This document shows, piece by piece, positions 7,716 to 35,271 of a stretch of 64,000 nt of DNA. Source of the DNA: Eledone cirrhosa (Eukaryota); the NCBI GenBank assembly GCA_964016885.1, contig OZ024756.1, positions 27,652,001 to 27,716,000 on the forward strand, written 5' to 3'. A model generated the notes under the pieces. It had not been told where the DNA came from. It worked only from the letters and a program-made list of their open reading frames with translations, and searched no databases. The position numbers were made by a program, and so were the translations under genes. Every line of letters starts with the position of its first letter. Position 1 is the first letter of the stretch.

Positions 7716-7784
7716 TAGTGGATTGGCAGATCCGGTTAAGGGTCTGACGCCTTGCTTTGCAGCAAAGAGTTACGGCCCTTTATG
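7716..7784 (+). mobile_element. SINE family 2 head, truncated just before the B box
   Basis: GTGGATTGGCAG...GAGTTACGGCCCTTTATG aligns with the head of the full copy at 40612. Confidence 0.8.
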
Positions 7785-8292
7785 CACACACTCGTTCAGT
7801 GCCCGAGCATTGCTGACTTGGGGAGCTATGTCGAACAGTTGCTGTCGCGTGTATGACTGATCCGGTTATCGACTGAGTCCATTGTGCAGATGGTCTCGCC
7901 GTCTTCCTTTGAGGAGGAAGGGCAGGCGGTTTTCATCTACCTGGAGGCCATGGCGAAAGAGATTGTGTGGTGGACAAGGTTGAAAGGATTAAAGACAGAC
8001 ACTTTCCTCTTCGGCGAATCCCTAATTAACTTTTTCAAGTTTCACTTGAAGAGAAAAATCAGGGTGGAGAGGCAAGTGTTGCCCTCTAGCAAGTTTTTGA
8101 AAGGTGGGTGAATGTAGCGAGAATGGTCCGAGTAAACGGGACCGCTCTGAATATACGCCTGTAGTTTGAGAGATGGAAAAATTGAGAGAGGGCGCTTGCC
8201 CTGGTGGTCAGGGTGGCCGTGGTCTTTTGTGTGGTTTTCGCCACGAGTAACCCATTGGGGAATTTTTCATTGTTTCAATTTTCATTTTTATT

Positions 8293-8327
<35 letters not shown>

Positions 8328-8482
8328 TATGTTTCTATGTCTTTTTTTTTCTTTTCTTATATAAATAATAAAAACCTTTACACGCACAAGACCCACATCA
8401 TACCTTCCTGTGCCGTCTGTAATGTTTTTCTTGATGTCAGCCCTTGTGGCCAATAAAGAAATCATTATTATTATTATTATTT
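7783..8482 (+). mobile_element. Tx1-clade element A0, 5'-truncated and decayed
   Basis: Homologous to the ORF2 C-terminus (GQAVFIYLEAMAKEIVWWTRLKGLK) and 3' UTR; ends CCCTTGTGGCCAATAAAGAAATC-(ATT)n. Confidence 0.93.
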
Positions 8483-8870
8483 TTTATTTTCTTTCATTAT
8501 TGTTTCTGAGATATATGCCGAGTGTCTTCCTGACACCTAGGGCAAATAAATTCACAGTGTGCATTGGTAAGCCAGTTAATACAGCACATTGATTATAATA
8601 ATAATAAAAAAATTTATTATTATTATTATTATTATCATTATTATTATTATTATTATTGAATGCCATGGTTGACGGAGGCTCGGCTCTGTAAGGTATAGTA
8701 ATTTTTAACCGTTAAAACAATTGTAAATTGTTTAAAACTTGAACCAAATTGTTGATAAAGACACCCTCCTCCTCGTGAGAGGGGTCTTTCTGTCCGTTAT
8801 TTGGCCCTTCGGGGTTAAATAACCAGTTATTGGGGTTTTGTACCCAAAATTTCTTTTTAAACAAAAAAAC

Positions 8871-10972
8871 ATGGCTACCAAAAAAAAAAAAAATTTCATA
8901 CGTCACTCCCACTCATTCCGTCTTCTTCTTCCTCAATCATCACTACAGGAGAGAGAAGATTGTCTCTCTCCCTCCCTTCTTTAAATGTGTCTCTCTCCCT
9001 ACCTTCTCTTTCGCAAGCGACGAAAGAAAAGAAAAGTCTCGTGCAAAGCGTGCAAGGTTTCTCCACGACGACGACGACAGCGACGAAACAGGTGTGCGGG
9101 AAATACGAAAACCCAGTTCATTCGTCTGACGTCAGGAATAATAGCAGTAGCAGCCGTAATAACAACAGCAACAGTGACAATGAAAACAACAGTAGCAGCC
9201 GCAACAGCATCACCAGCAGCATAAACAACAACAGCATTAGCAGCAGCAACACCAACAACAACCACAGCAACAGCGGCGGAGGCAGTAGTCGTAGTACCTG
9301 CAGCAACAACAAAAGTACCAGCAGCTCTGACGACAACAACAACAGCAGAGAAAAACCAATCTCATTTGCAGGTATTGCGAAAAACCTGGAAACAATCCTC
9401 ATAACAAATGAGGAATTAGAGGAAGCGAAGAAGATGGTGACAAAGAACGGACACCGAGCAATCTGCAAGGCAGCGAAAAATTTTTTCGAAACCCAAGAGC
9501 ACTGTACGGTCACGTACCGTACAGTAAGTACAAAATCCCGTAGGGTGGAAAGAGCCACAGAGGCCCAAATACAAAAAGCCTTGGGGTCTGTGTGGCAGAG
9601 GAAAACGCACATCACCCGAGGCAAAAAATACGCCACCGTAGACGTACTTTTTGCCACACCCCAGGAGGCAAAGGCCCAATCAGTAGTGACCCTAAGGAGC
9701 GAGGAAATGGTGTTGGTGCCCTCCTACTGCGGGCAAAAAATTGTGAGGGTCAAACTGACCCACGTCCCCCCCGGAATGACCCCTTCTTGGCTGGCCGCGT
9801 CTGTCCTCGTCGGAATCGAGGACAAAACAACTGTACTGCAAGTACAGAAAAAAGTAAGAGAAGATTGGGTCGGCTCCTCCATTGAGATGCTAATCCAAAC
9901 CAACCAGGAGTGCATCGAAGCTATCCCGGATGTGATAGACTTCGATAACGGCACTCAACTGCCCATAAGTGTTGAGGGCAAACGCCCGAAATGCTTTCGC
10001 TGTGGATCGAAGACTCACCTCAGGGCCTTCTGCAACGAGAAGACCCTGAGAAAGGAGAAAACCCCCCTCCTCCCGAATCCGGTTCCACGGCTACCAGCAA
10101 CAGGACAAGCGGCAACCAGGAACGATAGGTCCGTGGCACCCATACCCACTCCACGGAAATCAAAGACAGCAGCAGCAGTGGAAATATTAACAACAACAAC
10201 AGCAATACCAAATGCAGCTGCAACAGAGACTCCAGTGCAAACATCACCAACAACAACAAGTGAAAGAGTGGAGCTGGTACCCCTCCCCGACCTTACAGAA
10301 TCAGACATGGAGTGTGAGGTGGGAGAGGGATGGCAAAAGGTCTCAAGAAGGCACAAACGCAGAAGCAGCGCATCGTCGCCTTTGAAAAGGGAGGAAAGAA
10401 ATGAGAAAAGGGTAAAGTCTACTGCAAAGAGACCCACAGCAGCAACACCACCAACACCATCACCACCCACACCAGCACCACCATCACCACCGGCGACAAC
10501 CCCACCGCCAACAACACCTTCAACACCACCACCACAAGCACCAACATCGCAAACACAACAACAAAACACACACACCCAGCAACAACGACAAGAAAATAGC
10601 AGAACCACACCCCACCCCCAGAAAAACAAATGCACGGCAATAAACACACACAACAAGAAACTAATGACTTACATAATTGAACACACAGACATTTCACAAC
10701 AGGACTACATAATACCAGCACCAATCAAAACGCCAACTAACATAAGACTGCTAAAAATAGCACAGAAACAATACACAAACATTAAAACGAAATTCCCCAA
10801 CGCAGTTGGTGATTTCAGGGACCTAGGAGGAACCATTAATCGAAGAGTATATTCAGACATTCTCTTAGAAGAGCCGACGACCAGCCGAAGGGACGATTCA
10901 ACGGTCCCTTCACCAGACGATCAAGTGAAAAGGGATGTAAAAACCATCCCTCCTCTACCAAAAATACGGTAA
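8871..10972 (+). CDS. A1 ORF1 (CCHC zinc-knuckle protein); frameshift in the poly-A run after the ATG
   Basis: ATG at 8871 matches the A2 start, but the A-run at 8880-8893 shifts the frame; main frame 8960-10972 has CFRCGSKTHLRAFC. Confidence 0.85.
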
Positions 10973-11007
10973 GTGGTCTTTCCCATCTTTTCCACTCTAT
11001 TTTAAAC

Positions 11008-14000
11008 ATGACCTCACTCAGAATAGGCAGCATAAATGCGCGTGGCTTGGGGTCGTCATGGAAGCAGGGTCACCTGCTCAACGACCTCAGGTCACTAAAC
11101 ATAGATGTAGTGGCCATCAGCGAGACCAGAATCTCCGAAGCACGGGCCTTCGCACCGATCTTCGGCGGCTACGATGTGTACGCATCTCCCAGCCGTCCTG
11201 GATCGGGTGGAGGAGTTGCTGTGCTTTTTCGGAGAGGTTTGGATCTCGCCATACGGGCCATCTTCCTGGACCCAGAGGGTAAGCTGGTGGTGCTGGACGT
11301 GACCAGCGGAGACGGGCAAGCTTTCAGGCTAGTGGCCGTCTATGCCCCGACAGGAGCAGGGCGGCCTGATTTCTTCCGGCGTCTGGAGACCTTTCTTGGA
11401 ACGTCGCGCTCTTTAGTGTTAGTGGGCGACTGGAACGGGATCTTAGATGCACGCTGGGACTGTGTGGGATTAGCGGATAGGGGTGGAGGGTGCAAGAGCC
11501 TCACCAACCTGCTCAGGCGTTTTGAACTGTCTGACAGGTACCGATTGGATTTCCCGAATGTGCCAATGTGGACTTGGACAAACCGCATAGGGTCATCCAG
11601 ATCATATCTAGATAGAGTATTTTGTAGGGAAATAGATAGGTCTAGCATAGGCTGTCCACAATTCAAGATAGTCAGCTACACGGACCACAAATTCGTGATC
11701 TGTGTGCTTGACTTAGATAGGCTTCATAGACGAGGACCCGGCTACTGGAAGCTAAACGCGTCCTTACCAGCGCGCAAGGCCTACAGAGACCGGATTAGCG
11801 AACTAGTTAAGCGGGCGTTGACGGGGGCCATCGTCAACAACAAGTGGTGGTTTGCTCTGAAAAGAGCGATTAGAATAGAATCGATTAGGTTTAGTAAGGC
11901 TTTAGCAATAGAGAAAAATAGAGCAGAGGGAGAACTAGTTAGAAAATTAGACGAGGCGCTTAGCAAAGGCATTGCGACCGACGTGCTTGCGGCGAAATTG
12001 GCCCTTGACCAATTCTTCAATGCAAAGCACGAAGGCTGCGTTGTCAGAGCTAGGGTGCGTGCTCTCAGACACGAGGGGACGAAAGCCGTTCAATGGGCCC
12101 GAGTGGCGGAGGCGCGTCGTGGCAACAAAGCCACGATCCGGTCTTTGGTGGACCACGACGGGCGCATGCTACTCGATCCCGGGCAAATGTGTGAAGCTTT
12201 TCAGCGACACTTCGCTCAGCTGTTCGGGGGCAGCGGGGGGCCGGGTAGAGGGATGGACTTTAGTGTCTACCTCGACGGACTGCCGCGGCTCTCGGCCACT
12301 GAGGCGAAGTGTTGCGAAAAGCCGATAACAGCCGCTGAAGTAAGGGAGGCAATGACTGGCTGCACAAGGGGTAAATCGCCTGGTTTGGATGGTCTGCCCT
12401 ATGAACTTTACGTACAGATGCCAGACTTGTTCGGAGGCCTCTTGGCGGACGTCTACTGCAACTGGCAACAGAACGGGAGAATTCCCAGTTCTGTGAGCCG
12501 AGGAGCGGTGGCACTGCTGAGAAAGGATCCGAACAAGGGGGATAACATAGACAATTTCCGGCCCATAACTCTGCTAAACACAGAGTTTAAGATTTTGGCC
12601 AAGGTGCTAGCAAAGAGGTTGGCGCTTGTCGTTGGTGGTCTGGTGGGAGAGGCGCAGACATGCGCCATTCCCGACAGATCCATCCACGACAACCTCCACC
12701 TCATGCGATACATCGTAGAGAGGGTAGCTAGGGAACCTGGCACGGGTGGGTCCTTGATCAATTTAGATCAGTCGAAAGCTTTCGATAGGGTCGACCATCG
12801 TTACCTAGCGGCAGTCCTGAGGGCGGCTGGCTTTGGGCCCGTCTTCAGAGGCTGGATCGCTGCCATGCACAGCGACATCTGCTCTGTGGTGAGAGTGAAC
12901 GGTCACCTGTCGGAACCGTTCAACATCATGCGCTCGGTCCGCCAAGGATGTCCCCTCTCGTCCCTCTTGTACGTATTGACTCTCGAGCCATTACTGCACA
13001 AACTGGAGACGTTGAGGGGAGTCCCGCGCGAACTAGGATGCGGAAGATCCGTGTCAGCATATGCGGACGATGTCACCGTAGTGGTGTCGAACGCCAAACA
13101 CATCGAGGCGATCGGCACTACACTAAGAGAATACGAAGCGGTGACAGGAGCAATGATCAACCAGGAAAAGTCAGTGGGCCTGCAGCTCGGCACCTGGAGA
13201 GGCAGGTCCATGCCGTCCAACAGCGTCGTCGGGCGCTGGACGGACGGACCGGTTAAATTGCTAGGGGTCTGGTTCGGTCCGGACCTCCAGACGGACAAAA
13301 ACTGGGACGAGGTGACGAGCAGGGTGGCTTCTCTCACCCAGAAATGGGCGGAGAGGAAGCTATCCCTGAAAGGTCGAGCGGAGGTGGCTAACGCGTACAT
13401 CGCGTCTGTCATCTGCTACCGCCTAACCGTCGTACCTTGTCCTAAGCCTCGCCTGACTGCGCTGGAGCGTTTGCTCTTTCGCTTTTTGTGGAAGGGACGT
13501 GCTCCGATGGTCAGGCGGTCCATCTGTTGTCAACACCCGCTACGTGGAGGGCTGGGCATGCCGTGGCTGATGATGCGCAGGCACGCGCTCAGGCTACGAC
13601 ATCTCCACCTCTTCCTCGACGGTGATCAGGTGTGGTCGCCGTTTGCTAGACGCGTTTTTCCCCAGCTCGTTTCCTTGACGGAGCTGCAGTCCTGGGTCAA
13701 GCGAAGACCGAGAGGGAGCGCCTGGAGACTGGAATGTCTTCAGGCGCTCACAGCCCTCGACCAATCGGGCAATGTGATCGGTGGAAACTCCACCTCGGCG
13801 TTCTATAGAGGATTAGTGGAGGGGAAGAGCGACGACGTACTTGGGGAAACTCTAGGCGTCGACGAAAATCAACTAGCCAATCTCTTCGGAAGAACCTTCG
13901 GGCCAGGGCCTATGGACAACTTCCAGAAATCTCTGGCCTGGCAGTGCTACCGAGGAGCCTTGCCAGTTCGGGATAAACTCTACAGGCATGGAGGTGCCGT

Positions 14001-14427
14001 CAGCCGGGCATGTCCGAGATGCGCGCAGGGCGACGAAACCGTCCTGCACGCACTCGTCCAGTGTCCGAAAATTGCTGACTTGTGGGTTTATGTCGAACAC
14101 CTGCTGTCGCGTTTAGGACGGATCCAGCTATCATCTGAGTCTATCGTGAGGATTGCCCCGCCCTCCTCCTTTAGCCGGGAAGGGCAGGCAGTTTTTATCT
14201 GTCTGGTGGCCATGGCGAAAGAGATAGTATGGTGGACACGTTTGAAAGGGCTGAAGACGAGCACTTACCTCTTCGGTGATGCTCTGATTGACTTTTTCAA
14301 ATTTCATTTGAAAAGGAAAATCAGAGTAGAGAAGGAAGTGCTCTCTTCCCAGCATTTTGTTGAAAGATGGGTGAGAGAAGCAAGAATGGCCCGAGTGAAT
14401 GGGCCGACTCTGAGTATATATCTGTAA
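11008..14427 (+). CDS. A1 ORF2: APE endonuclease + reverse transcriptase + CCHC zinc domain, 1139 aa
   Basis: SINARGL, SETR, GDWN, YLDR, TDH (APE); KSPGLDG, FRPITLLN, DQSKAFD, QGCPLS, YADD (RT); CPRC..ETVLHALVQC. Confidence 0.98.
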   Translation: MTSLRIGSINARGLGSSWKQGHLLNDLRSLNIDVVAISETRISEARAFAPIFGGYDVYASPSRPGSGGGVAVLFRRGLDLAIRAIFLDPEGKLVVLDVTSGDGQAFRLVAVYAPTGAGRPDFFRRLETFLGTSRSLVLVGDWNGILDARWDCVGLADRGGGCKSLTNLLRRFELSDRYRLDFPNVPMWTWTNRIGSSRSYLDRVFCREIDRSSIGCPQFKIVSYTDHKFVICVLDLDRLHRRGPGYWKLNASLPARKAYRDRISELVKRALTGAIVNNKWWFALKRAIRIESIRFSKALAIEKNRAEGELVRKLDEALSKGIATDVLAAKLALDQFFNAKHEGCVVRARVRALRHEGTKAVQWARVAEARRGNKATIRSLVDHDGRMLLDPGQMCEAFQRHFAQLFGGSGGPGRGMDFSVYLDGLPRLSATEAKCCEKPITAAEVREAMTGCTRGKSPGLDGLPYELYVQMPDLFGGLLADVYCNWQQNGRIPSSVSRGAVALLRKDPNKGDNIDNFRPITLLNTEFKILAKVLAKRLALVVGGLVGEAQTCAIPDRSIHDNLHLMRYIVERVAREPGTGGSLINLDQSKAFDRVDHRYLAAVLRAAGFGPVFRGWIAAMHSDICSVVRVNGHLSEPFNIMRSVRQGCPLSSLLYVLTLEPLLHKLETLRGVPRELGCGRSVSAYADDVTVVVSNAKHIEAIGTTLREYEAVTGAMINQEKSVGLQLGTWRGRSMPSNSVVGRWTDGPVKLLGVWFGPDLQTDKNWDEVTSRVASLTQKWAERKLSLKGRAEVANAYIASVICYRLTVVPCPKPRLTALERLLFRFLWKGRAPMVRRSICCQHPLRGGLGMPWLMMRRHALRLRHLHLFLDGDQVWSPFARRVFPQLVSLTELQSWVKRRPRGSAWRLECLQALTALDQSGNVIGGNSTSAFYRGLVEGKSDDVLGETLGVDENQLANLFGRTFGPGPMDNFQKSLAWQCYRGALPVRDKLYRHGGAVSRACPRCAQGDETVLHALVQCPKIADLWVYVEHLLSRLGRIQLSSESIVRIAPPSSFSREGQAVFICLVAMAKEIVWWTRLKGLKTSTYLFGDALIDFFKFHLKRKIRVEKEVLSSQHFVERWVREARMARVNGPTLSIYL

Positions 14428-14696
14428 ACTAAAGGTGGAAAACTGGGAGAGGGCACTTGCCTTGGTGGTCAGGGTCATTGTGGCTTTTTACTGGGCTTTC
14501 TCCACAAATGTCCCTCCGAAGTCTCCCCCCTATTGGGGAATTTTTCATTGTTATTTTCATTGTTATTTTTGTTACATCCTCTGTTTTTGTTTTTTTACAC
14601 GCAGAAATGCCCATTTGTACCGTCCTGCATTGTCCTGCACTGTCCTTAATGTCTACTTTATGTAAACCCTTGTGGTTAATAAAGAAATCATTATTA

Positions 14697-14731
<35 letters not shown>

Positions 14732-14944
14732 GAATGCCATGGTTGACGGAGGCTCGGCTCTGTAAGGTATAGTAATTTTTAACCGTTAAAACAATTGTAA
14801 ATTGTTTAAAACTTGAACCAAATTGTTGATAAAGACACCCTCCTCCTCGTGAGAGGGGTCTTTCTGTCCGTTATTTGGCCCTTCGGGGTTAAATAACCAG
14901 TTATTGGGGTTTTGTACCCAAAATTTCATTTTAAACAAAAAAAC

Positions 14945-17041
14945 ATGGCTACCAAAAAGAAATTTCATACGTCACTCCCACTCATTCCGTCTTCTTCTTC
15001 CTCAATCATCACTACAGCAGAGAGAAGATTGTCTCTCTCCCTCCCTTCTTTAAATGTGTCTCTCTCCCTCCCTTCTCTTTCGCAAGTGACGAAAGAAAAG
15101 AAAAGTCTCGTGCAAAGCGTGCAAGGTTTCTCCACGACGACGACGACAGCGACGAAACAGGTGTGCGGGAAATACGAAAACCCAGTTCATTCGTCTGACG
15201 TCAGGAATAATAGCAGTAGCAGCCGTAATAACAACAGCAACAGTGACAATGAAAACAACAGTAGCAGCCGCAACAGCATCACCAGCAGCATAAACAACAA
15301 CAGCATTAGCAGCAGCAACACCAACAACAACCACAGCAACAGCGGCGGAGGCAGTAGTCGTAGTACCTGCAGCAACAACAAAAGTACCAGCAGCTCTGAC
15401 GACAACAACAACAGCAGAGAAAAACCAATCTCATTTGCAGGTATTGCGAAAAATTTGGAAACAATCCTCATAACAAATGAGGAATTAGAGGAAGCGAAGA
15501 AGATGGTGACAAAGAACGGACACCGAGCAATCTGCAAGGCAGCGAAAAATTTTTTCGAAACCCAAGAGCACTGTACGGTCACGTACCGTACAGTAAGTAC
15601 AAAATCCCGTAGGGTGGAAAGAGCCACAGAGGCCCAAATACAAAAAGCCTTGGGGTCTGTGTGGCAGCGGAAAACGCACATCACCCGAGGCAAAAAATAT
15701 GCCACCGTAGACGTACTTTTTGCCACACCCCAGGAGGCAAAGGCCCAATCAGTAGTGACCCTAAGGAGCGAGGAAATGGTGTTGGTGCCCTCCTACTGTG
15801 GGCAAAAAATTGTGAGGGTCAAACTGACCCACGTCCCCCCCGGAATGACCCCTTCTTGGCTGGCCGCGTCTGTCCTCGTCGGAATCGAGGACAAAACAAC
15901 TGTACTGCAAGTACAGAAAAAAGTAAGAGAAGATTGGGTCGGCTCCTCCATTGAGATGCTAATCCAAACCAACCAGGAGTGCATCGAAGCTATCCCGGAT
16001 GTGATAGACTTCGATAACGGCACTCAACTGCCCATAAGTGTTGAGGGCAAACGCCCGAAATGCTTTCGCTGTGGATCGAAGACTCACCTCAGGGCCTTCT
16101 GCAACGAGAAGACCCTGAGAAAGGAGAAAACCCCCCTCCTTCCGAATCCGGCTCCACGGCTACCAGCAACAGGACAAGCGGCAACCAGGAACGATAGGCC
16201 CGTGGCACCCATACCCACTCCACGGAAATCAAAAACAGCAGCAGCAGTGGAAATACTAACAACAACAACAGCAATACCAAATGCAGCTGCAACAGAGACT
16301 CCAGTGCAAACATCACCAACAACAACAAGTGAAAGAGTGGAGTTGGTACCCCTCCCCGACCTCACAGAATCAGACATGGAGTGTGAGGTGGGAGAGAGAT
16401 GGCAAAAGGTCGTAAGAAGGCACAAACGCAGAAGCAGCGCATCGTCGCCTTTGAAAAGTGAGGAAAGAAATGAGAAAAGGGTAAAGTCTACTGCAAAGAG
16501 ACCCACAGCAGCAACAACACCAACACCATCACCACCCACACTAGCGCCACCATCACCACCGGCGACAACCCCACCGCCAACAACACCTTCAACACCACCA
16601 CCACAAGCACCAACATCGCAAACACAACAACAAAACACACACACCCAGCAACAACGACAAGAAAATAGCAGAACCACACCCCACCCCCAGAAAAACAAAT
16701 GCACGGCAATAAATACACACAACAAGAAACTAATGACTTACATAATTGAACACACAGACATTTCACAACAGGACTACATAATACCAGCACCAATCAAAAC
16801 GCCAACTAACATAAGACTGCTAAAAATAGCACAGAAACAATACACAAATATTAAAACGAAATTCCCCAACGCAGTTGGTGATTTCAGGGACCTAGGAGGA
16901 ACCATCAATCGAAGAGTATACTCAGACATTCTCTTAGAAGAGCCGACGACCAGCCGAAGGGACGATTCAACGGTCCCTTCACCAGACGATCAAGTGAAAA
17001 GGGATGTAAAAACCATCCCTCCTCTACCAAAAGTACGGTAA
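14945..17041 (+). CDS. A2 ORF1, 698 aa (Ser/Asn-rich N-terminus, probable RRM-like region, CCHC knuckle, Pro/Thr-rich tail)
   Basis: Open from ATG GCT ACC at 14945; CFRCGSKTHLRAFC; basic RRHKRR patch. Confidence 0.93.
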   Translation: MATKKKFHTSLPLIPSSSSSIITTAERRLSLSLPSLNVSLSLPSLSQVTKEKKSLVQSVQGFSTTTTTATKQVCGKYENPVHSSDVRNNSSSSRNNNSNSDNENNSSSRNSITSSINNNSISSSNTNNNHSNSGGGSSRSTCSNNKSTSSSDDNNNSREKPISFAGIAKNLETILITNEELEEAKKMVTKNGHRAICKAAKNFFETQEHCTVTYRTVSTKSRRVERATEAQIQKALGSVWQRKTHITRGKKYATVDVLFATPQEAKAQSVVTLRSEEMVLVPSYCGQKIVRVKLTHVPPGMTPSWLAASVLVGIEDKTTVLQVQKKVREDWVGSSIEMLIQTNQECIEAIPDVIDFDNGTQLPISVEGKRPKCFRCGSKTHLRAFCNEKTLRKEKTPLLPNPAPRLPATGQAATRNDRPVAPIPTPRKSKTAAAVEILTTTTAIPNAAATETPVQTSPTTTSERVELVPLPDLTESDMECEVGERWQKVVRRHKRRSSASSPLKSEERNEKRVKSTAKRPTAATTPTPSPPTLAPPSPPATTPPPTTPSTPPPQAPTSQTQQQNTHTQQQRQENSRTTPHPQKNKCTAINTHNKKLMTYIIEHTDISQQDYIIPAPIKTPTNIRLLKIAQKQYTNIKTKFPNAVGDFRDLGGTINRRVYSDILLEEPTTSRRDDSTVPSPDDQVKRDVKTIPPLPKVR

Positions 17042-17076
17042 GTGGTCTTTCCCATCTTTACCACTCTATTTTAAAC

Positions 17077-20000
17077 ATGACCTCACTCAGAATAGGCAGC
17101 ATAAATGCGCGTGGCTTGGGGTCGTCATGGAAGCAGGGTCACCTGCTCAACGACCTCAGGTCACTAAACATAGATGTAGTGGCCATCAGCGAGACCAGAA
17201 TCTCCGAAGCACGGGCCTTCGCACCGATCTTCGGCGGCTTCGATGTGTACGCATCTCCCAGCCGTCCTGGATCCGGTGGAGGAGTTGCTGTGCTTTTTCG
17301 GAGAGGTTTGGATCTCGCCATACGGGCCATCTTCCTGGACCCAGAGGGTAAGCTGGTGGTGCTGGACGTGACCAGCGGAGACGGGCAAGCTTTCAGGCTA
17401 GTGGCCGTCTATGCCCCGACAGGAGCAGGGCGGCCTGATTTCTTCCGGCGTCTGGAGACCTTTCTTGGAACGTCCCGCTCTTTAGTGTTAGTGGGCGACT
17501 GGAACGGGATCTTAGATGCACGCTGGGACTGTGTGGGATTAGCGGATAGGGGTGGAGGGTGCAAGAGCCTCACCAACCTGCTCAGGCGTTTTGAACTGTC
17601 TGACAGGTACCGATTGGATTTCCCGAATGTGCCAATGTGGACTTGGACAAACCGCATAGGGTCATCCAGATCATATCTAGATAGAGTATTTTGTAGGGAA
17701 ATAGATAGGTCTAGCATAGGCTGTCCACAATTCAAGATAGTCAGCTACACGGACCACAAATTCGTGATCTGTGTGCTTGACTTAGATAGGCTTCATAGAC
17801 GAGGACCCGGCTACTGGAAGCTAAACGCGTCCTTACCAGCGCGCAAGGCCTACAGAGACCGGATTAGCGAACTAGTTAAGCGGGCGTTGACGGGGGCCAT
17901 CGTCAACAACAAGTGGTGGTTTGCTCTGAAAAGAGCGATTAGAATAGAATCGATTAGGTTTAGTAAGGCTTTAGCAATAGAGAAAAATAGAGCAGAGGGA
18001 GAACTAGTTAGAAAATTAGACGAGGCGCTTAGCAAAGGCATTGCGACCGACGTGCTTGCGGCGAAATTGGCCCTTGACCAATTCTTCAATGCAAAGCACG
18101 AAGGCTGCGTTGTCAGAGCTAGGGTGCGTGCTCTCAGACACGAGGGGACGAAAGCCGTTCAATGGGCCCGAGTGGCGGAGGCGCGTCGTGGCAACAAAGC
18201 CACGATCCGGTCTTTGGTGGACCACGACGGGCGCATGCTACTCGATCCCGGGCAAATGTGTGAAGCTTTTCAGCGACACTTCGCTCAGCTGTTCGGGGGC
18301 AGCGGGGGGCCGGGTAGAGGGATGGACTTTAGTGTCTACCTCGACGGACTGCCGCGGCTCTCGGCCACTGAGGCGAAGTGTTGCGAAAAGCCGATAACAG
18401 CCGCTGAAGTACGGGAGGCAATGACTGGCTGCACAAGGGGTAAATCGCCTGGTTTGGATGGTCTGCCCTATGAACTTTACGTACAGATGCCAGACTTGTT
18501 CGGAGGCCTCTTGGCGGACGTCTACTGCAACTGGCAACAGAACGGGAGAATTCCCAGTTCTGTGAGCCGAGGAGCGGTGGCACTGCTGAGAAAGGATCCG
18601 AACAAGGGGGATAACATAGACAATTTCCGGCCCATAACTCTGCTAAACACAGAGTTTAAGATTTTGGCCAAGGTGCTAGCAAAGAGGTTGGCGCTTGTCG
18701 TTGGTGGTCTGGTGGGAGAGGCGCAGACATGCGCCATTCCCGACAGATCCATCCACGACAACCTCCACCTCATGCGATACATCGTAGAGAGGGTAGCTAG
18801 GGAACCTGGCACGGGTGGGTCCTTGATCAATTTAGATCAGTCGAAAGCTTTCGATAGGGTCGACCATCGTTACCTAGCGGCAGTCCTGAGGGCGGCTGGC
18901 TTTGGGCCCGTCTTCAGAGGCTGGATCGCTGCCATGCACAGCGACATCTGCTCTGTGGTGAGAGTGAACGGTCACCTGTCGGAACCGTTCAACATCATGC
19001 GCTCGGTCCGCCAAGGATGTCCCCTCTCGTCCCTCTTGTACGTATTGACTCTCGAGCCATTACTGCACAAACTGGAGACGTTGAGGGGAGTCCCGCGCGA
19101 ACTAGGATGCGGAAGATCCGTGTCAGCATATGCGGACGATGTCACCGTAGTGGTGTCGAACGCCAAACACATCGAGGCGATCGGCACTACACTAAGAGAA
19201 TACGAAGCGGTGACAGGAGCAATGATCAACCAGGAAAAGTCAGTGGGCCTGCAGCTCGGCACCTGGAGAGGCAGGTCCATGCCGTCCAACAGCGTCGTCG
19301 GGCGCTGGACGGACGGACCGGTTAAATTGCTAGGGGTCTGGTTCGGTCCGGACCTCCAGATGGACAAAAACTGGGACGAGGTGACGAGCAGGGTGGCTTC
19401 TCTCACCCAGAAATGGGCGGAGAGGAAGCTATCCCTGAAAGGTCGAGCGGAGGTGGCTAACGCGTACATCGCGTCTGTCATCTGCTACCGCCTAACCGTC
19501 GTACCTTGTCCTAAGCCTCGCCTGACTGCGCTGGAGCGTTTGCTCTTTCGCTTTTTGTGGAAGGGACGTGCTCCGATGGTCAGGCGGTCCATCTGTTGTC
19601 AACACCCGCTACGTGGAGGGCTGGGCATGCCGTGGCTGATGATGCGCAGGCACGCGCTCAGGCTACGACATCTCCACCTCTTCCTCGACGGTGATCAGGT
19701 GTGGTCGCCGTTTGCTAGACGCGTTTTTCCCCAACTCGTTTCCTTGACGGAGCTGCAGTCCTGGGTCAAGCGAAGACCGAGAGGGAGCGCCTGGAGACTG
19801 GAATGTCTTCAGGCGCTCACAGCCCTCGACCAATCGGGCAATGTGATCGGTGGAAACTCCACCTCGGCGTTCTATAGAGGATTAGTGGAGGGGAAGAGCG
19901 ACGACGTACTTGGGGAAACTCTAGGCGTCGACGAAAATCAACTAGCCAATCTCTTCGGAAGAACTTTCGGGCCGGGGCCTATGGACAACTTCCAGAAATC

Positions 20001-20757: not shown

Positions 20758-20800
<43 letters not shown>

Positions 20801-21638: not shown

Positions 21639-21676
21639 ATATATATATATATATACTCGTATATACATATATACTC

Positions 21677-22124: not shown

Positions 22125-22192
22125 AATATGGTTTTATAAATATAGTTTCCATTTATTAATATATTGTATATATATATATATATATATATATA

Positions 22193-22407: not shown

Positions 22408-22444
<37 letters not shown>

Positions 22445-25600: not shown

Positions 25601-26137
25601 GAAATCTATCGACCAGGTCGAATCGATCGAGTAACCCCTTGAGGCTGCTACACCCCCCTCTATCGGGACATGCCCCTGCATAGTCCCAACGCGCATCTAG
25701 GATTCCATTCCAGTCCCCCACTAAAAGCAGGGAACGCGACGTTCCTAGAAAAGTCTCCAGTCGCTGGAAGAAGTCGGCTCTTTCAGCCCCGAAGGGGGCA
25801 TAAAGACCGACCAGTCTGAAAGCCCCACCTTCACCGCCTCCAACGTCCAGCACCAGTAATCGACCCCTCGGGTCCGAGTGAACAATCTGTACGTCGAGAG
25901 CCAGACGTTTATCCAGCAGTACGGCAACTCCCCCCCCCCGCCTCCGGGTTGACAGAGAGATGCGTGCATCTCAAAGTCATCGAAGGCGGGAGCCAGCTGT
26001 CGCACGCTGCTGATCCGACTCTCGCAAACAACCATCACATCTATACTTCGTGACCTGAGGTCACTTAGTAGCTTTGCTTGCTTCCAAGCTGAGCCCAGGC
26101 CACGCGCGTTCAAACAGCCAACTCTCAATTGATCTAT
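22698..26137 (-). pseudogene. B1 ORF2 (APE-RT-Zn), disrupted
   Basis: Start apparently ATG>ATA (IDQLRVGC vs B2 MDVLRVGC); frameshift at the G homopolymer ~25930-25939; SDH, YADD and CPRC motifs intact. Confidence 0.92.
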
Positions 26138-27960
26138 TTTGGTGTTGAAAGTGAAGAAAGAAAAGCACCTACCTCTCCGGGCTGTGTAATTTCCATGGCG
26201 TCAGGTGTGTTGGGTGGAGGGATGTTTTGTGGTGGTGTGGGGGTGCCCGAGTGTGGTGGGGTTGGGGTGTTTGGAGTTGTGTCAGGGAGAGGGGAGGTTA
26301 TGGGGAAATCTTTCAAGAGGACGCGATTTAACGGTTTTAAACAGGGGGGGGGGGGGCTCACGTCCTGTCTAAATTGTTCTTTTAAGGAACGATAAAGGTC
26401 CAGAGGGACCTTTATCATTTTTAAATGGGTGAAGTTCTCTGTTGAGATAAAGTTTGGCCCCTCGGTCTGCACCAAAGGGCTATTGTTTATTAATTTAAAC
26501 AGTTTTTTGTTTTCTTTATTTATATATGTGTATTGCAATGTCTTTTTTTGTGATGCTGTCAATGTTTCGGAGAGGGGAGGCGCAGATTTATTTTTGTTTG
26601 TTGAGGGTGGGGTGCTTTTTATTGGAGTTGGTGTTTGTGTGTGGGTTATTTGTGGTGTGCTGGGTGTGTGCTTTCTTTTTTTTCTTTTAACTTGTCTGAA
26701 GGCTTCTCCTCCTTCTTCTTCAGAAGTTGGGGGAAACTCTTCAGCGCTAGGTGGGAGGGACGTCGTGTCTGGTTGTTTTTTTTTTGCGGGAGGGGTAGAT
26801 TTGTTGCTGTTTTTTTTATTATTTGTTTGGAATGCGTTTTGTGGTGGTGGTGGTGCTGTTTGTGTCATGCTTGTGGTTGGTGGTGGTGGTGTTTGTGTTG
26901 GTGATGGTGGTGGTGATTTTTGTGTCGTGCTTGTGTTTGGTGCTGGTGGTGGTGATGTTTGTGTTGTGCTTGGTGGTGTTTGTATTTTGTTTGCTGTGTG
27001 TGGTATTAGTGTATTTTTGGAGGTGGGTGGTGTTGGTGTACTGTTTGTGGTGGGTGTGGGCAATAGTCCTTTTTGGGGGACACGTTTCGGGCAGTTAGCC
27101 TTAATGTGTCCCCTTTCCGTGCATAAATAGCATGCTGGTCTTCTCCCCTCTACAATTATATCTATTGGGGTGAGCTCATCCAGCCAGATGCGATCCGGGA
27201 TTTGTGCTATTCTTTCGGGCCTCATTTGGACTAGTAGGTCGAGGCCCATTCCCAGGAACGCATCTCCGGATGCCTTCCCCATTGACAGCACTGTGTCCTC
27301 GCCCATGTCTATGAAGCCAGCAATAGCCCACCAGAAGTCCATTGTGGGCAGCATTGTTTGTATTTTTACTCTCTGTGTTCTTCTACCCATGTAGGAGGGA
27401 TAGAAGCTGTATGTTGTCGATGAGAGTGGGCTTAGGGAAAGCTTCTCCGCCGTTTCCTTGTCTTTTGTTAGGACCGAAATGCTGCCATAGAGTCGGTCCT
27501 TTCGTATGAAGAGAATATTCTTCATATAGTCTTTTAGGACCAACTCTATCTCCATTTAGCTGGGCTGTGCTGGCTTTCTTGTTTGGTTTAGGATTGTTCT
27601 GAAGAGAACTGTGTTCTCTGTTCTCGCTTTCTTGAATTCTGGGGGGGAGTTAATGGAAAACATTCCGTTCTCCCCCAAAACAATGTGTTTCTTTGCTTCG
27701 GCCAGTTTTTCTCTGGCGGCCGTTAGGTCAATTGGTGTGTATGTAATGGATTGTTTTATTTTCTGGGCGAAAGTTGCCCTGTTGTTATTTGTATTATTTT
27801 CTGTTTGTTTGTTTTCCGTTTGCTCATTTTCCTTAACATTTGTTTTTTTATTTTCTTTGTTTGTTTCGTTGTCTAATTTTGTTGTAATTATTTTTTGTTC
27901 TTCAGACTTGGGGGGCGTGGCAGAGCTAATGGCAGACATGTCTGCCATCTTTTCCGCCAT
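26134..27960 (-). pseudogene. B1 ORF1, one in-frame stop
   Basis: Segments 27556-27987 and 26134-27555 are in frame across a TAA (QPS*M vs B2 QPSQA); knuckle CYLCTERGHIKANC. Confidence 0.9.
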
Positions 27961-28388
27961 GCTGCCAAGAACGAAATTTTTCGGCAAAAATAGATATTCA
28001 TTTTACCCCCTAAAAAGGGGGTAAATGCAAAAATGTTTCCCTAAATAACAGGGGTTAGTGTTCCAAATGTGTTGCACTGAAAAATGTATCCGGTACTTAC
28101 AATAGTAAGGGTAAATCCCGATGGAATAGCGGAGCCGATGTGAAGCGTGTCTTACTCTATCAAGATAGATAGATTTCTTTATTTACCATAAAGGCATAAA
28201 AAGAAGGGACAAATACAAAGGGGGAGTTTACATATAATCGAGTAAAAAGGGTGTAACATGAAAATAATCGAAAATAACCTCAAAAGGGAGGGGACGTGAT
28301 GAGGGTTGCACACACCCCCGAAAAAGTGTGCAATCCTTTGCCCGGGGAGCACATGGAGAAGGTGCTCCCCTCTCCTTTACTTCTTTAC

Positions 28389-31300
28389 CTACAGGATGGT
28401 ATACAGAGAAGGCCCATTTACACGAGCCATTCTCGCCACTATCACCCACCTTTCATAAAACTGCCTGTGGCCAAGCACCTCTCTCTCCATTCTTATCCTT
28501 CTTCCGAAGTGATATCGGAAGAAGTAGACCAGACTATGGCCAGAGAGGAAGTTGCCTGACCTCAGACCTTTCAATCGTGTCCACCAAACAACCTCTTTCA
28601 ACATGGCTATTACGCACAGAAAAACCGCCTTTGCTTCCTTTGTGAAGAGGGGAGGCGGTTTGATTGTCATCACGGACTCGGCGGTCAATTTAATCGGCGC
28701 CACCCGCGACAGCAGTCGTTCGGCGTAGCCCCACAGATCAGCCACGCCCGGACATTGCACCAATGCGTGGGCAACGGTTTCTTCGTGACGCACGCATCTA
28801 GGGCAAATCTTTTTTGAGGGATCCCTGCCCGGGCGCCCGTGTCTGTAGAGCCTCTCTCGAACGGGTAGAGCCCCCCGGTAGCACTGCCAGGCCAGTGACT
28901 TCTGGAAGTTGTCCATTGGTCCTGGGCCGAAAGTCCTACCGAACAGGCTGGCCAGTTCGTCTTCTTCCATGTCCAGCGACTCTCCAAGGGTGTCATCGCC
29001 CCTGCTAGCCACCAGCCCTCTATAGAATGATGAGGTGGATTCTCCACGGATGGCCTGGCCCGCTTGCCAGAGAGCCCTGAGCGCCTGAGCACACTCAGTG
29101 TGCCAGTCTCCCAGTTTTCCGGATCTTTGCTTGACCCAGGACTGTAGCTCAGTGAGCGAGACGAGTCTCGGAAAGGCTCGTTTCACGAACGGAGCCCACA
29201 CCGGTTGACCAGTGAGGAATACCTGTAGGTGCCGTAGCCTTAATGCGTGCCTACGCATCATCAACCACGGCATCCCCAGCCCTCCTTTCGAAGGTTGTTG
29301 GCAGCAGATGGATCTTCTCACCATAGGAGGACGCTTCTTCCAAAGAAATTGGAAGAGCATGCGTTCCATGGTGGTGAGTGTTTCCTTAGGGCAAGGCACG
29401 ACAGTCAGGCGGTAGTAAGTGACGGACGCTATGTAAATGTTCGCCACCTCCGCCCGGCCTTTTAGGGACAGCTTACACTTGGCCCATTTCTGGGTTAGTG
29501 CAAACACCTTGTTCGTAACCTCGTTCCAGTTCTTTTCCACCTGGAGGTCCGGTCCAAACCAGACCCCAAGCAACTTTACCGGGCCCTACGTCCAGTGTCC
29601 GACGACACCGCCAGGAGGCATCGGTCTGCCTCTCCACGTTCCGAGTTGCAGCCCGATGGATTTTTCCCGGTTCAGTTTCGCTCCTGACAACCTTTCGTAC
29701 TCCTCCAGTAAGGTACCGATCGCCTCGATCTCCGAGTCGGTTGATACCATTACTGTTACGTCATCGGCGTAGGCCGACACCGCTTTGCTCAATCCTGGTT
29801 CCAGGGGGATACCCTGCAACAACTCCAACTTCCTCAGTAAAGGCTCGAGAGTCAATACGTACAGAAGGGAGGAGAGAAGGCACCCCTGTCGAATGGATCG
29901 TGTGATTTCGAACGGCTTCGAAAGGTAGCCGTTCACCTTGATCCTAGAACAGATGTGGTTGCTATGTAGGGCAGTGATCCAGCCTCTGAAAACAGGACCG
30001 AACCCAGCCGCCGCTAGCACCGCATCCAGGTAACCATGGTCGACCCTATCGAAGGCCTTAGACTGATCCAAGTTGATCAGGGCCCCACCGAAGCCGGGTT
30101 TGTTGCCAACCCTCTCTATGATGTATCGCATGAGGTGGAGGTTATCGTGAATGGACCTGGATGGGATAGCACATGTCTGCGCATCTCCCACCAGGCGACC
30201 CACGACAAGCGCCAACCTCTTTGCTAACACCTTGGCCAAAATCTTTAACTCTGTGTTTAGCAGGGTTATGGGCCGACAATTATTTATACTATCCCCCTTG
30301 TTCTCGTCCTTCCTCACCAGCGTGACTACGCCCTTGGCTACAGAACAAGGAATTCTCCCGTTCTGCTGCCAATTGCAGTAGACCGCTTCGAGGAGTTCGG
30401 AGAAGAAGACCGGCATTGCTAAATAAAGTTCGTAAGGTATACCATCGAGACCTGGAGATTTGCGTCTGCTGCATTGGCTCAGCGCATCTCCGATCTCATC
30501 AGCCGAGATTGGTCCCTCGCAGGACTCTGCCTCTTCGTTCGAGAGACGCGGCAGGTCGTCGAGGTATGGACCGAAATCCACGCCCCCGCCCGGACCCTTG
30601 CCTCCCCCGAACAATCGGGCAAAGTGCCTTTGAAAGGCATCGCACATCTGCTTAGGCTCCCGGATCACCCGTCCACCTTCGTCTTGCAACGACCGGATGG
30701 TGGATCGATTTCCACTCTTAGCTTCTGTCACGCAGGCCCATCCAACGGCTTTGGCCCCCTCATTACCTAGAGCACGTATTTTACTTCGAATGACGCAGCC
30801 TTCGTGCTTTGCATCGAAAAACTGGTTCAAGGCCGTCCTCGATGCCAGCACTCTGGCCACATCTTCGCTCTTGATTGCCTCTTCTAATTTACCTGTTAAT
30901 TCTTTCTCGTTTCTATTCCTATCGGCAGCTAACATCTTGCTATAACTTATTGATTCTGTTCTAATTTCCCTTTTGAGAGATGCCCACCATCGGTTGTTGA
31001 CGATTGCACCCGTCAACCTCTCCTTAACTAATCTGCTAATCCGGTTTCTGTAAGTCTCTTTTGCCGGTAAAGACAAATTAAGTTTCCAGTAACCGGGACC
31101 CTGTCTATGTGTTTTCTCGAGATTGACCACGCAGGTCACTAATTTGTGATCCGTGTAGCCAACCGTGCGCATTTCTGGACAGCTTAATATGTCCCTATCC
31201 TTACTTCTAACTAAGAATCTATCTAAGTACGATCTAGATTGACCACTGTGGTTTCTCCAAGTCCAGGTAGGCACAGTTGGAAAATCTAGTCGATATCTAT

Positions 31301-31828
31301 CGACCAAGTTAAAACGGTCGAGTAACCCCTTGAGGCTGTTACACCCCCCTCTATTAGGACATGCTCCTGCATAGTCCCAACGTGCATCCAGGATGTCATT
31401 CCAATCCCCCGCTAGAAGCAGGGAACGCGACGTTCCCAGAAAAGTCTCCAAACGCTGGAAGAAGTCGGGCCGTTCAGCTCCGAAAGGGGAGTAGACGGTG
31501 ACCAGTCTCAAGGCCGCACTTTCACTACTGCCAACGTCTAGCACCAACAAACGACCCCCCCCGGGTCCGAGTGCACAACCTGTACGGCAAGACCCAGGTG
31601 TTTTTGCAGCAGTACGATAACCCCACCCCCACCTCCAGGTTGACAGAGAGATGCATGCACCTCAAAGTCATCGAAGGTGGGGGCCAGCTGCCGCACGACG
31701 CTGATTCGAGTCTCACAGATAACCATTACATTTATACTACATGACCTGAGGTCATTTAGAAGCTTTGCTTGCTTCCAAGTTGAGCCCAGGCCACGTGCAT
31801 TCAAACATCCTACTCTTAACACATCCAT
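28389..31828 (-). pseudogene. B2 ORF2 (APE-RT-Zn), frameshift plus nonsense codon
   Basis: Three collinear segments 31538-31828, 29586-31550, 28389-29573; TAG replaces Glu in WTEG. Confidence 0.93.
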
Positions 31829-31861
31829 GTGGGTGGCAGAGCCAAAGGAGAGTGTAGAGAC

Positions 31862-33762
31862 CTACCTTTCCGCTTCCCGGGGTTCGGGTTGCACGACTTC
31901 CATGGGGTCGGGGGTGTTGGGTGAAGGGGTGTCTTGTGGTGGTGTGGGGTCGTCAGTGTGTGGTGGGGTTGGGGTGTTTGGAGTTGTGTTGGGGAGGGGA
32001 AGGGGAGGGGGAAAGCTTTTTAGTAGGACGCGGTTTATGGGTTTGACAGAGGGTGGTCCTACGTCCTCCTTAAAATCCTTTTTTAGTTTTTGGTAGAGGT
32101 TCATTGGGATCTTTATTAGTTTTAAATGTGGGTAGTTTTCTGACGAAACAAAGTTTACACCTTCGGTTTGTACCGAAGGATTATTGTATATGAGTTCATT
32201 TAATTTATTATTGTTTCTGTTGATGTAAGTATAGTGTAATGTCTTTTTTTCCGATGGTGTGAGTGTTTCGAAGAGGGGAGGGGCAGGTTTGGTTTTGTTT
32301 GTTGCTGGAGGGGTGTTTTCTGTTTTGTTGGATTGTGTTGAGATTTGGGTGGGGGTTGTTTGTCCTTGTGTGTTTTGCACATGTTTTCTTTTTTTCCTTT
32401 TAATCTGTCTGAAGGACTCCGTTTCTTCCTCCGAATTCGTTGGGTTATCTTCAGTGTTGGAGGGAAGAGGTATGTTTGCTGGTAATGTTTCCGTGTTGGT
32501 TTTCTTTGTGGGGGAGATGGATGTCACTATGTTAGACTGTGTTGTGTGTTGTGATGCGGTGGTTGTGTTGTTTTATTGAGTGAGAGGTTGGGTGGGCCTG
32601 TATTTTGTTTTGGGGTAATGTGTTGTGACTGTTTGTGTTGTGGTGGTGTTGTGGTTTTACTGAGGGATGGGTTGGGTGGGACTGAGTTTTGTTGTTTGTT
32701 TATCTGTTGTGGTGGTGGTGGTGGAGCTGGTGTTGGTAGCAGGGTTTTCTTTTTGTTGAGTTGGGGACAAGCGGCCTTCAGGTGCCCTCTGCCTGCACAG
32801 ATATGGCAGGACGGCCTTCTCCCCTCCACGCTAATGTTTATATACCCGTGGTCCTCTAATAGGATTCTGTCGGGTATTTGGGCGATGCGTTCAGGCTTCA
32901 TTTGTACTACCAGCTCTATACCTGTTCCACTGAACGCATTGCCTGTGGTTTTCCCAATGGAAATCACGTTGTTATTCACTGGATCGATGAAGCCAGCTAT
33001 AAGCCAGCAGTAGTCCACATCTGGCATCATTGCATCCAGCCATATGCGTTGAGTTCTTTTCCCCATATAAGATGGATAAAAGGTGAAATTTTTCGAACGA
33101 ATCGGTGACAAAGCACATTTTTTTGCCGCCGATTCGTTCTTCATGATAATTGCTAGGCTTCCATACAGTCTGTCTTTTCTTATGAAAGTGGTTTCATTAA
33201 GTACTTCTGTGAGTACTGTTTTGATATCTGCTTGAGAAGGCTGTTCAGGTTTTTTTGTACTGTTGTTGATGGTCCGAAATTTGACCGTTCGGCTTTCAAT
33301 GTCTTTCGTGAATTCTTGAGGCATTTTTACCGATAAAATACCATTCTCTCCTTCACTTATGTATTGTTTGGCGTCCGTGATCCTTCGTACCACATCTGAA
33401 ATGTTTTCCGCTATATAAGTCAAAGATTTCTTTGTTTTCTGTGCAAATGAAATCTTGTCGTCTGCTTTGTTTTCTGATATGGTGTTATTTTCAAATGTTA
33501 TTTTTGTGTTTGTTGTGTCTTTGTTTGTGTTATTAGTATTGTCATGCAATTTTTCAAATTTTTTTTTTTCGTTGTTGGAATCCAAGTCCAGATTTGTGTT
33601 TTCGTCATTTTTTTTTTTCTCCGCAGATTCGTCTGTTTTTATTTTAATTTTTCCTTCCTTCTCTATGACGTTAGTTGGGAAGGAAGGGAGGACTAAAGCG
33701 TGCGAGCTTACAACTCTTACCGCTGTCCCCCCACCACTATTTTCGTTCGCTGCGTTTAACAT
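31862..33762 (-). pseudogene. B2 ORF1, frameshifted near 32527
   Basis: Knuckle CHICAGRGHLKAAC; FIRKDRLYGS and FYPSYMG shared with B1 ORF1. Confidence 0.88.
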
Positions 33763-33995
33763 TTCTGTTAGACGATTGAAATTTTTTACACAACATTTTT
33801 TAAAACAGGTTTTAAAGGGGTAAAGATGAGCTGACCCACCGCCTGACAGTTCAGACGGAGGGTCAAGCTACACAATTGTATCAAAATTAAGTTTGAACTC
33901 AAAATTTCCTCAATAAATTTGAACAAAACTTCTGTGCGAAGTGAATGACATCCACACTGTAGAACAGACGACAGCTAGGACTATCAAGATAGATA

Positions 33996-35086
33996 TATTT
34001 CTTTATTAGCCACAGGGGCACAAAAGAAGGGGACAAATACAAAGGGGGAAGTTTACATACAATAAAAACGTGTAAAATGTTATCACAGATGGAATTTAAA
34101 AGTTAGTCGATTTTCCCCAATAGAGGGAGACAGTTTATATGGGTAACACAGACCCCCGAAAAAAATGTGCAACCCTCATCTCCAGGAGTACGAAGAGCTT
34201 GTACTCCTTTCCTCTCCTCCTCCTTTTCCTCAACCTACAGGCTGATATAGAGAGAAGGCCCATTCACTCGGGCCATTCTCGCCACTTTCACCCACCTTTC
34301 ATAAAACTTGCTGGGGTACAGCACCTCTCTCTCCATCCTGATTCTTCTTCCAAAGTGGTATTTGAAAAAAAGAATCAGTTGTTGGCCGGAGAGAAAGGTG
34401 TCTGACCTCAGCCCTTTCAACCTTGTCCACCATACAACCTCTTTCGCCATAGCTATCACACAAAGGAAAACCGCCTCTCCTTCGTTTTTGAAGGAGGGTG
34501 GCGGTTTGATCATGACAATGGACTCGGTGGTCAACTGGATTGGTCCCACCCGCGACAATAGTCGTTCCACATAGCCCCACAGGTCAGTGACGCCCGGGCA
34601 GTGTATGAATGCGTGCGCGACGGTTTCTTCGTCTCGCACGCACCTCGGACAGATCTTTTTTGCAGGGTCCCTGCCCGGGCGCCCATGTCTGTAGAGCTTG
34701 TCTCGAACTGGTAGAGCTCCTCGGTAGCACTGCCAGGCCAGGGACTTTTGGAAGTTGTCCATCGGTCCCGGGCGGAAGGTCCTACCGAACAGACTGGCCA
34801 GTTCATCTTCCTCCACGCCTAGAGTTTCACCGAGCGCGTCGTCGCACTTGCTGCGGACCAACCCTCTATAGAATGACGAAGTGGAGTCTCCACTGATCGC
34901 CGGGTCCGCCTGCCAGAGGGCTGTGAGCGCCTGAGCACATTCGATGTGCCAGTCGCCCATTTTCCTCGGTCTCTGCTTGACCCAGGACTGCAGCTCGGTC
35001 AGCGAGACGAGTCGTGGGAAGGCTCGCCTCACAAACGGGGCCCACACCGGTTGTCCGGTGAGGAATACGTAGAGATGCCGCAGCCT
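33996..35086 (-). mobile_element. 5'-truncated Tx1-clade element B3
   Basis: ORF2 C-terminal ~280 aa open (RLRHL...RVNGPSLYISL); 5' junction is a pure (CTAT)6 tract at 35087-35110. Confidence 0.95.
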
Positions 35087-35271
35087 ATAGATAGATAGAT
35101 AGATAGATAGAGAGGGGTAACATGAATACGTCATATGATAGGCAGTAATATGAGGTGACATTTAATAATGATGTGATCAACAATCTTTACAAATCGATGT
35201 AATTGAACCAAACTAGGTTACCGACCATTCACGACGGCACGTATAAGATGGAGCTTCGATTTCCACATCAA

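Follow-up and report, generated by a model that had tools for sequence, protein, structure and literature searches.

Long interspersed nuclear elements (LINEs) of the Tx1 clade that carry an apurinic/apyrimidinic-type endonuclease (APE) and insert specifically into microsatellites are already known. They comprise Kibi with the target (TC)n, Koshi with (TTC)n, and crocodilian Tx1 families with (TTCC)n or (TTTC)n (PMC4494074, PMC3812793), while further Tx1 targets, including a satellite class, are listed in Fig. 3 of PMC4494074. The present analysis concerns elements of this kind in the octopod Eledone cirrhosa, found in a stretch of 64,000 nucleotides (the window; C17:27,652,001-27,716,000 of a 3.0-Gb assembly, GCA_964016885.1, contig OZ024756.1), for which an initial annotation, made from the letters alone, had rightly named Kibi and Koshi as precedents (PMC4494074). 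The window, whose anatomy was established by self-comparison and translation, holds seven Tx1-like LINE copies, A0, A1, A2, and A3 on the + strand and B3, B2, and B1 on the - strand. They resemble Kibi, Koshi, and the crocodilian families in being APE elements, here putatively of the Tx1 clade, that insert specifically in microsatellites, but differ from Kibi and Koshi in that the targets are the A/T-rich repeats (ATT)n and (TATC)n and a 72-bp satellite instead of (TC)n or (TTC)n, that the host is a mollusc, that three targets occur within one clade, and that the copies form arrays of up to ten. Taken as a whole, the evidence makes it probable that the branches of this family, sitting in (ATT)n, in (TATC)n, or at one site of the 72-bp satellite, are placed there by endonuclease nicking and priming within the repeat, followed by target duplication and stacking.

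Dong targets TAA, also in the snail Biomphalaria glabrata, where the element is called DongBg (PMC3812793), and thus shares with lineage A a trinucleotide target and occurrence in a mollusc. However, it belongs to the clade Dong-R4 (PMC13282606, PMC8967140) and has a restriction-like endonuclease (PMC4640811), whereas lineage A has an APE domain, so the common TAA/ATT target is convergent. R2, whose RNA retains upstream 28S sequence and forms uniform 5' junctions via annealing, with occasional direct target duplications (PMC3774820), is similar in its uniform 5' junctions and duplicated target; it differs in its hepatitis delta virus (HDV)-like ribozyme and ribosomal DNA target, no ribozyme having been found here with Rfam or a structural descriptor. 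In octopus, L1-Tx1 elements are expanded and recently active, with 13 families and 421 recent insertions in O. vulgaris (PMC13282606, PMC8967140); the main texts of these catalogues hold no statement on targets (the word does not occur in PMC13282606 and occurs once, generically, in PMC8967140), although the supplements could differ. No report of ATT or TATC targets in Tx1 elements or in cephalopods was found in the literature, although such targets might be recorded in Repbase, Dfam, the primary paper of 2004, or the figure or supplements of PMC4494074. Microsatellite-targeting Tx1 elements are therefore not new, while (ATT)n, (TATC)n, and 72-bp satellite targets are unreported for Tx1 in the literature found.

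Target sites of lineages A and B

The 5' ends and 3' motifs were counted by whole-genome pattern searches with reversed-pattern controls. Lineage A 5' ends follow (ATT)3 in 2,416 of 2,505 cases (96%) and B1 5' ends follow (TATC)3 in 532 of 620 (86%), with 0 for the reversed control in both. An insertion preference has been defined elsewhere as a repetitive target in more than 20% of flanks (PMC4494074), and both shares lie above this value. The (ATT)n- and (TATC)n-specific families proposed in the initial annotation are thereby borne out, as is its expectation that 5' junctions across the genome would not be random; truncated copies with duplications of 16-20 bp and no tail point the same way. 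At the 3' side, (ATT)n follows the element at all 30 A loci, with the next A start coming directly after it at 10 of these, and one TATC unit or more follows at all 30 B1 loci. When the C-terminal 175 residues of open reading frame 2 (ORF2) were used in protein searches, 150 of 150 scored matches had 100% identity for A and for B1 each, which indicates that both are young and abundant.

Both flanks were read in a sample of 40 A and 40 B1 copies, of which 20 were chosen for short and 20 for long open frames. The full-length copies are preceded by their repeat without exception, the 35 of lineage A by 5-19 ATT units and the 37 of lineage B by TATC. The other five A copies are one subfamily chimera and four truncated copies, three of the latter following (ATT)n, and among the three truncated B copies one (L119) follows (TATC)n and two (L128 and L117) lie at sites with a single TATC unit. 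L128 and L117 are flanked by target duplications of 18 and 16 bp without an added tail, and the full-length B copy L111 by a 20-bp duplication containing a variant unit. Such near-cognate duplications of 16-20 bp without an added tail indicate that the repeats are mainly target DNA and not tails. Repeats of TATC stand at the junction of 32 of 37 internal starts best matching a B- or C-type reference, a biased set whose loci were selected near B copies or TATC tracts.

The repeats might instead be element-encoded tails or leaders produced by slippage, with insertion sites otherwise random. Tails of the L2/CR1 type are made by slippage, A tracts are longer on the 3' side than on the 5' side, and an element adjoins 16 of the 27 long (TATC)n tracts examined at the start of C1, so that elements could generate tracts. 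Yet copies truncated at many different points still begin right after the repeat, an arrangement that a tail-only model cannot produce and that marks the repeats as targets; target duplications occur without a tail, and lineage C, described below, sits at one position inside long satellite arrays. This explanation is largely refuted and we regard it as very improbable.

The specificity of the two lineages for their targets is close to certain, but several observations weigh against too simple a view of it. The 80 sampled copies are the top-scoring matches on C1-C5 and hence non-random; one truncated A copy (L075) has no ATT 5' of its truncation point; six short-tailed A-type ends (L282-L287) show no convincing target duplication; and A0 and A3 of the window lie in a short interspersed nuclear element (SINE), so the specificity is not absolute. 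The median A tract has 15 units on the 3' side against 9 on the 5' side, which suggests that read-through tails or slippage also add repeats. It is worth adding that two truncated B1 copies (L060 and L046) lie within degenerate minisatellites containing single TATCT words, and that at L201 a (TATC)13 tract is followed by an apparent element 3' region in reverse orientation.

Lineage C, family size, and relationships

A motif at the 3' end, noted at first as conserved in all seven window copies, is exact in five and present as variants in B2 and B3. It has 27,896 matches in the genome against 4 for the reversed control. Among the first 100 of these 3' ends, counted by hand, 36 are flanked by ATT, 39 by TATC, 14 by a satellite, and 11 by other or short sequence, the last group counting against a family confined to the three repeats; (TC)n flanks one of the 100. 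A poly(A) tail is present in none of these 100 and, as the initial annotation had it, in none of the seven window copies. The family is thus one of about 28,000 copies lying mostly within repeats, in an ATT, a TATC, or a 72-bp satellite branch. Young A 3' ends number 7,005 against 2,505 5' ends, corresponding to about 36% full-length copies. A near-universal full length was considered and rejected as an artefact of biased top matches.

The 14 satellite-flanked ends represent a third lineage, C. In six loci chosen from the first 100 for their satellite flank, all nine C 3' ends enter the same position of the 72-bp unit and all four 5' ends follow 65 nt of it, i.e. 7 nt before the unit end. Lineage C also occurs in arrays (C1:4,241,500-4,260,500, L275-L276, and L277-L281). 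Its 5' end starts with a 12-bp palindrome and folds back onto the upstream satellite sequence (folding z -2.69).

Elements of the Tx1 clade have a C-terminal Cys-His zinc motif in ORF2 and a CCHC zinc knuckle in ORF1, while the L1 clade proper has a 3' poly(A) tail. In the window, ORF2 codes for an APE endonuclease and a reverse transcriptase (RT) in A1, A2, B1, and B2 (PF03372 and PF00078), and zf-RVT (PF13966) scores above the cut-off in A1, A2, B2, and B3 and below it in B1. A knuckle CX2CX4HX4C is found in ORF1 of B1 and B2 and is also visible in the A1 translation; the Pfam zf-CCHC domain matches ORF1 of B1 alone, below the cut-off. The best match among solved structures is human LINE-1 ORF2p (E 2.4e-52 over endonuclease and RT), from whose element those described here differ in having no poly(A) tail and repeat-specific targets. 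Only one homolog bears the name Tx1, a 'Transposon TX1 uncharacterized 149 kDa protein' of Stylophora with 38% identity over the RT, and the assignment to Tx1, which rests on domain structure together with this homolog, should be read as putative.

Lineages A and B are about 71% identical over ORF2, B1, B2, and B3 are 78-82% identical to one another, and C is about 80% identical to B1; in the RT, A shows 76-77% identity to B1 and C. The closest named homolog of the RT is a protein of Argonauta hians (73%), in keeping with an octopod host, and the abundant SINE of the window may likewise be of an octopus type. In an RT tree of 32 rows, built without the reference Tx1 families Tx1L, Keno, Kibi, and Koshi, lineages A, B, and C fall into a single clade with the Argonauta protein and P0004 (support 100/99), in which B and C group together (100/100), while the nearest relatives outside it have about 50% RT identity. 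The description of A and B as sister lineages holds insofar as both fall in one well-supported clade, but the closest sister of B is C and not A. A search of representative sequences matched no named family, and a metagenome scan returned distant loci alone, with 25-48% best-segment identity. Six sequencing runs contain the stretch, and among the runs listed none is RNA.

Stacks in the window and arrays elsewhere

On the + strand, the A copies form one stack:
7718..7784, + strand: 5' half of a SINE, mapping to 46416-46354 (remaining half to 46353-46227, gapless)
7785..8463, + strand: A0, an older, 5'-truncated A-type copy, 75% identical to A2, ending in the shared 3' motif and then (ATT)6
8464..8657, + strand: A0-A1 interval with (ATT)6, a 134-bp spacer, and the (ATT)n tract preceding A1
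8658..14689, + strand: A1, full-length, 6,032 bp, with a 5-A insertion early in ORF1 that shifts its frame, and with ORF2 open
14690..14731, + strand: A1/A2 joint, (ATT)3 GTT (ATT)10
14732..20759, + strand: A2, full-length, 6,028 bp, with both ORF1 and ORF2 frames open
20760..20798, + strand: A2/A3 interval, (ATT)13
~20801..21116, + strand: A3, a short 5'-truncated A-type copy, its 3' end without (ATT)n and with ATC common to A3 and the SINE
21114..21240, + strand: 3' half of the SINE, closing with the SINE's own short (ATT)n tail

As first described, A0, A1, and A2 enter (ATT)n, and A1, A2, and A3 start after it. ORF2 of A1 comprises the APE, RT, and zf-RVT domains. Since the 5' end of A0 and the 3' end of A3 adjoin two contiguous halves of one SINE, the entire 13.3-kb A stack splits this SINE. 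A0, the spacer (for which no match was found among the loci compared), and A3 may represent one read-through unit that arrived before A1 and A2 entered its ATT tract. Older A-type copies also insert in the body or head of this common SINE (L283, L284, and L287), whose own (ATT)n tail is another frequent A target (L011, L074, and L285); the 3' part of the SINE in the window is present as an exact 91-bp tandem duplication (21155-21333).

The B copies are stacked on the - strand:
22468..28163, - strand: B1, full-length, 5,696 bp, with a stop in ORF1 (zinc knuckle) and a frameshift in the endonuclease part of ORF2
28164..28172, - strand: B2/B1 joint, a short TATC repeat followed by TTGATAG
28173..33987, - strand: B2, full-length, 5,815 bp, 82% identical to B1, with ORF1 and ORF2 broken
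33988..33996, - strand: B3/B2 joint, a short TATC repeat followed by TTGATAG
33997..35086, - strand: B3, 5'-truncated, 1,090 bp, 79% identical to B1 and 86% to lineage C
35087..35110, - strand: 5' junction of B3, (CTAT)6 beside the truncated copy

B3 indeed starts after (CTAT)6, and the B3/B2 and B2/B1 joints, recognized from the outset as short TATC repeats, consist of 2-3 TATC units each; the 3' end of B1 has a single TATC unit followed by (TA)n/(CT)n. Both B1 and B2 start with TTGATAG (28156-28172 and 33980-33996, - strand) despite their unrelated 5' untranslated regions, and this motif corresponds to a short stretch of the upstream TATC repeat in inverted orientation. Between the two stacks, a near-perfect inverted repeat with 159-nt arms (99%; 21793-22174) lies in (TA)n, resembles a miniature inverted-repeat transposable element, and has a relative at 58315-58584. 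Near 21510-21640 there is a candidate RT fragment, which the single frame translated did not confirm. Further along lie a 63-bp satellite (62.6 copies, 35544-39474), beginning about 430 bp past B3, and a 40-bp satellite (36.8 copies, 43147-44605), neither of which matched the lineage C satellite probe.

Across the genome, direct joints of an A 3' end to an A 5' end number 519, about one fifth of A 5' ends. In the flank sample, 11 of the 35 full-length copies of lineage A, and 13 of the 37 of lineage B, have another element's 3' end within 130 nt upstream. Given the 7,005 young A 3' ends and at least 44,770 (ATT)6 tracts in the genome, random choice among tracts would give at most 392 A-A joints by arithmetic, or about 130 if there were three times as many tracts. 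The excess of about 1.3-4 times is modest and weighs against arrays that propagate by a preference of their own; it suggests that stacking comes mostly from the elements owning many of the targets, i.e. from target regeneration. As to (TATC)6 tracts at the start of C1, 18 of the 30 listed touch an element, or 16 of 27 once split tracts are merged.

Arrays could also be produced, with the elements still target-specific, solely by tandem duplication, by unequal crossover between the flanking repeats, or by mixing in the assembly. A simple tandem duplication or assembly echo was rejected for A1 and A2, which differ by 39 mismatches over 6,033 positions and carry different genome-wide haplotypes. 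No short-read contig from four runs spans the A1/A2 joint, which is uninformative since repeats are skipped. Over 2,269 bp, the median number of differences is 5 for adjacent A copies and 6 for background pairs, array members' haplotypes occur elsewhere in the genome, and mixed stacks of subfamilies 75-82% identical (A0/A1; B3/B2/B1) cannot be duplications. Nevertheless, complete identity over the 2,269 bp is seen in 3 of 25 adjacent A pairs, compared with 3.4% of 2,796 background pairs at no more than one difference, arrays with spacers of 0.2-2 kb occur, and an odd 51-bp junction recurs. Within the 17 arrays examined, seven pairs of neighbours have private variants in common, which points to local duplication in some arrays and counts, like the modest excess, against growth by insertion alone. 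Processes of this kind as the sole source of arrays are improbable. The initial view of head-to-tail stacking is supported across the genome by the 519 joints and in the window by the different haplotypes of A1 and A2, but part of the stacking is due to local duplication or recombination.

The 10-copy array at C1:441.09-441.14 Mb has copies differing at 5-79 positions, the 3'-most being the most diverged, and two of them are nearest to A1 and A2 of the window (9 and 10 differences) and not to any neighbour. An identical 51-bp junction, found as the genomic flank too, makes up seven of its nine internal joints, and the other two carry shorter versions of it. The 5'-most member (L271, C1:441,140,900-441,143,100) is a 2,116-bp 5' fragment without a 3' end, followed by the 51-bp junction. 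Runs of neighbours have 5' variants in common but not their 3' halves. In the array L273-274, three stacked copies carry three 5' variants absent from all other compared copies while their bodies differ, and a 41-bp flank is duplicated exactly to the first base of the resident copy. The shared 5' variants and the exact duplication of this flank would fit a new 5' end being completed on the neighbouring copy. The mosaic, however, is incompatible with a single direction of growth and requires local recombination in addition, and together with the private variants it means that recombination after insertion or mixing in the assembly could make the chimeras. The odd 51-bp junction and the 5' variants shared by neighbours point to neighbour-templated 5' ends or local recombination, and neighbour-templated 5' completion is at present a lead.

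Mechanism of targeting and its significance

The endonuclease of each branch would nick its own repeat, and reverse transcription would be primed at the nick. Insertion would duplicate the target and so provide fresh same-strand targets, on which later copies could stack head-to-tail. A full-length RNA made by read-through may start with a few units of the target, whose annealing to the target would give uniform 5' junctions, as proposed for R2. With less confidence, a copy landing beside a resident one might complete its 5' end on the neighbour, which would duplicate the whole junction (41-59 bp as seen) and make chimeric copies, and local duplication or unequal exchange could then enlarge some arrays.

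Full-length copies begin at a fixed base. At three B loci (L105, L120, and L134), 4-10 pure TATC units on the 5' side contrast with 1-2 at the 3' end, and the first 100 A-A joints all comprise (ATT)6 or more. This floor possibly reflects an RNA 5' leader or, equally, an 18-bp duplication. A search of the 5' ends with Rfam found no ribozyme, which speaks against processing of such a leader, and a relaxed HDV-like descriptor gave 0 matches in A2, B1, and C and two weak ones in B2, while 3-8 of 30 shuffled sequences match as well. The folding z-scores of the 5' ends are 0.30 for A2, -1.04 for B1, -2.33 for B2, and -2.69 for C.

The same uniform junctions and possible 5' leader are what one would see if targeting were mainly by RNA-DNA pairing, with repeat-ended read-through transcripts annealing to nicked tracts and a loosely selective endonuclease, in which case a changed flank alone would suffice for a target switch. 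Nine extra ATT-like bases lie between the 3' end and the duplicated flank at L273. The catalytic-domain motifs of the endonuclease align with those of the L1 enzyme, and the region equivalent to the L1 hairpin loop, NRIGSS in A, NRSGQS in B1, NHSGQS in B2, and NRSGTS in C, differs between the three lineages, which favours targeting by the enzyme, but only a little, which would suit pairing. L1 specificity has been altered by loop grafts, and L1 targeting also involves factors besides nicking specificity (PMC1950540). The sites of L128, L117, and L060, however, match TATC over only about 5-6 nt and gained no 3' repeat units, and targeting mainly by pairing is unlikely. Targeting by the enzyme is likely, with the reservation, which counts against it, that we infer the specificity of the enzyme.

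A broader interpretation is tentative: an octopod LINE clade of tens of thousands of copies might have retargeted its APE at least twice over a short distance, own most long TATC tracts, and build arrays with a 6-kb unit via neighbour-completed 5' ends. How APE-type elements choose microsatellites has been described as not well understood (PMC3812793), and swaps of domains and loops between three close lineages with different targets, some of whose copies, such as A2 and the B1 copy L121, have open frames, would allow the question to be tested directly. The size of the family is considerable, with 27,896 3' ends and no fewer than 2,505 young A copies that have a 5' end, which would amount to about 15 Mb were all of them full length. 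Its contact with 16 of 27 sampled long TATC tracts is relevant where TATC/GATA and ATT microsatellites serve as markers in this animal. The arrays exemplify a way in which tandem repeats of a 6-kb unit can be seeded by a LINE. If the retargeting of the clade is real, it would offer a natural series for reading and reprogramming the target choice of APE, and a route from LINE to macrosatellite.

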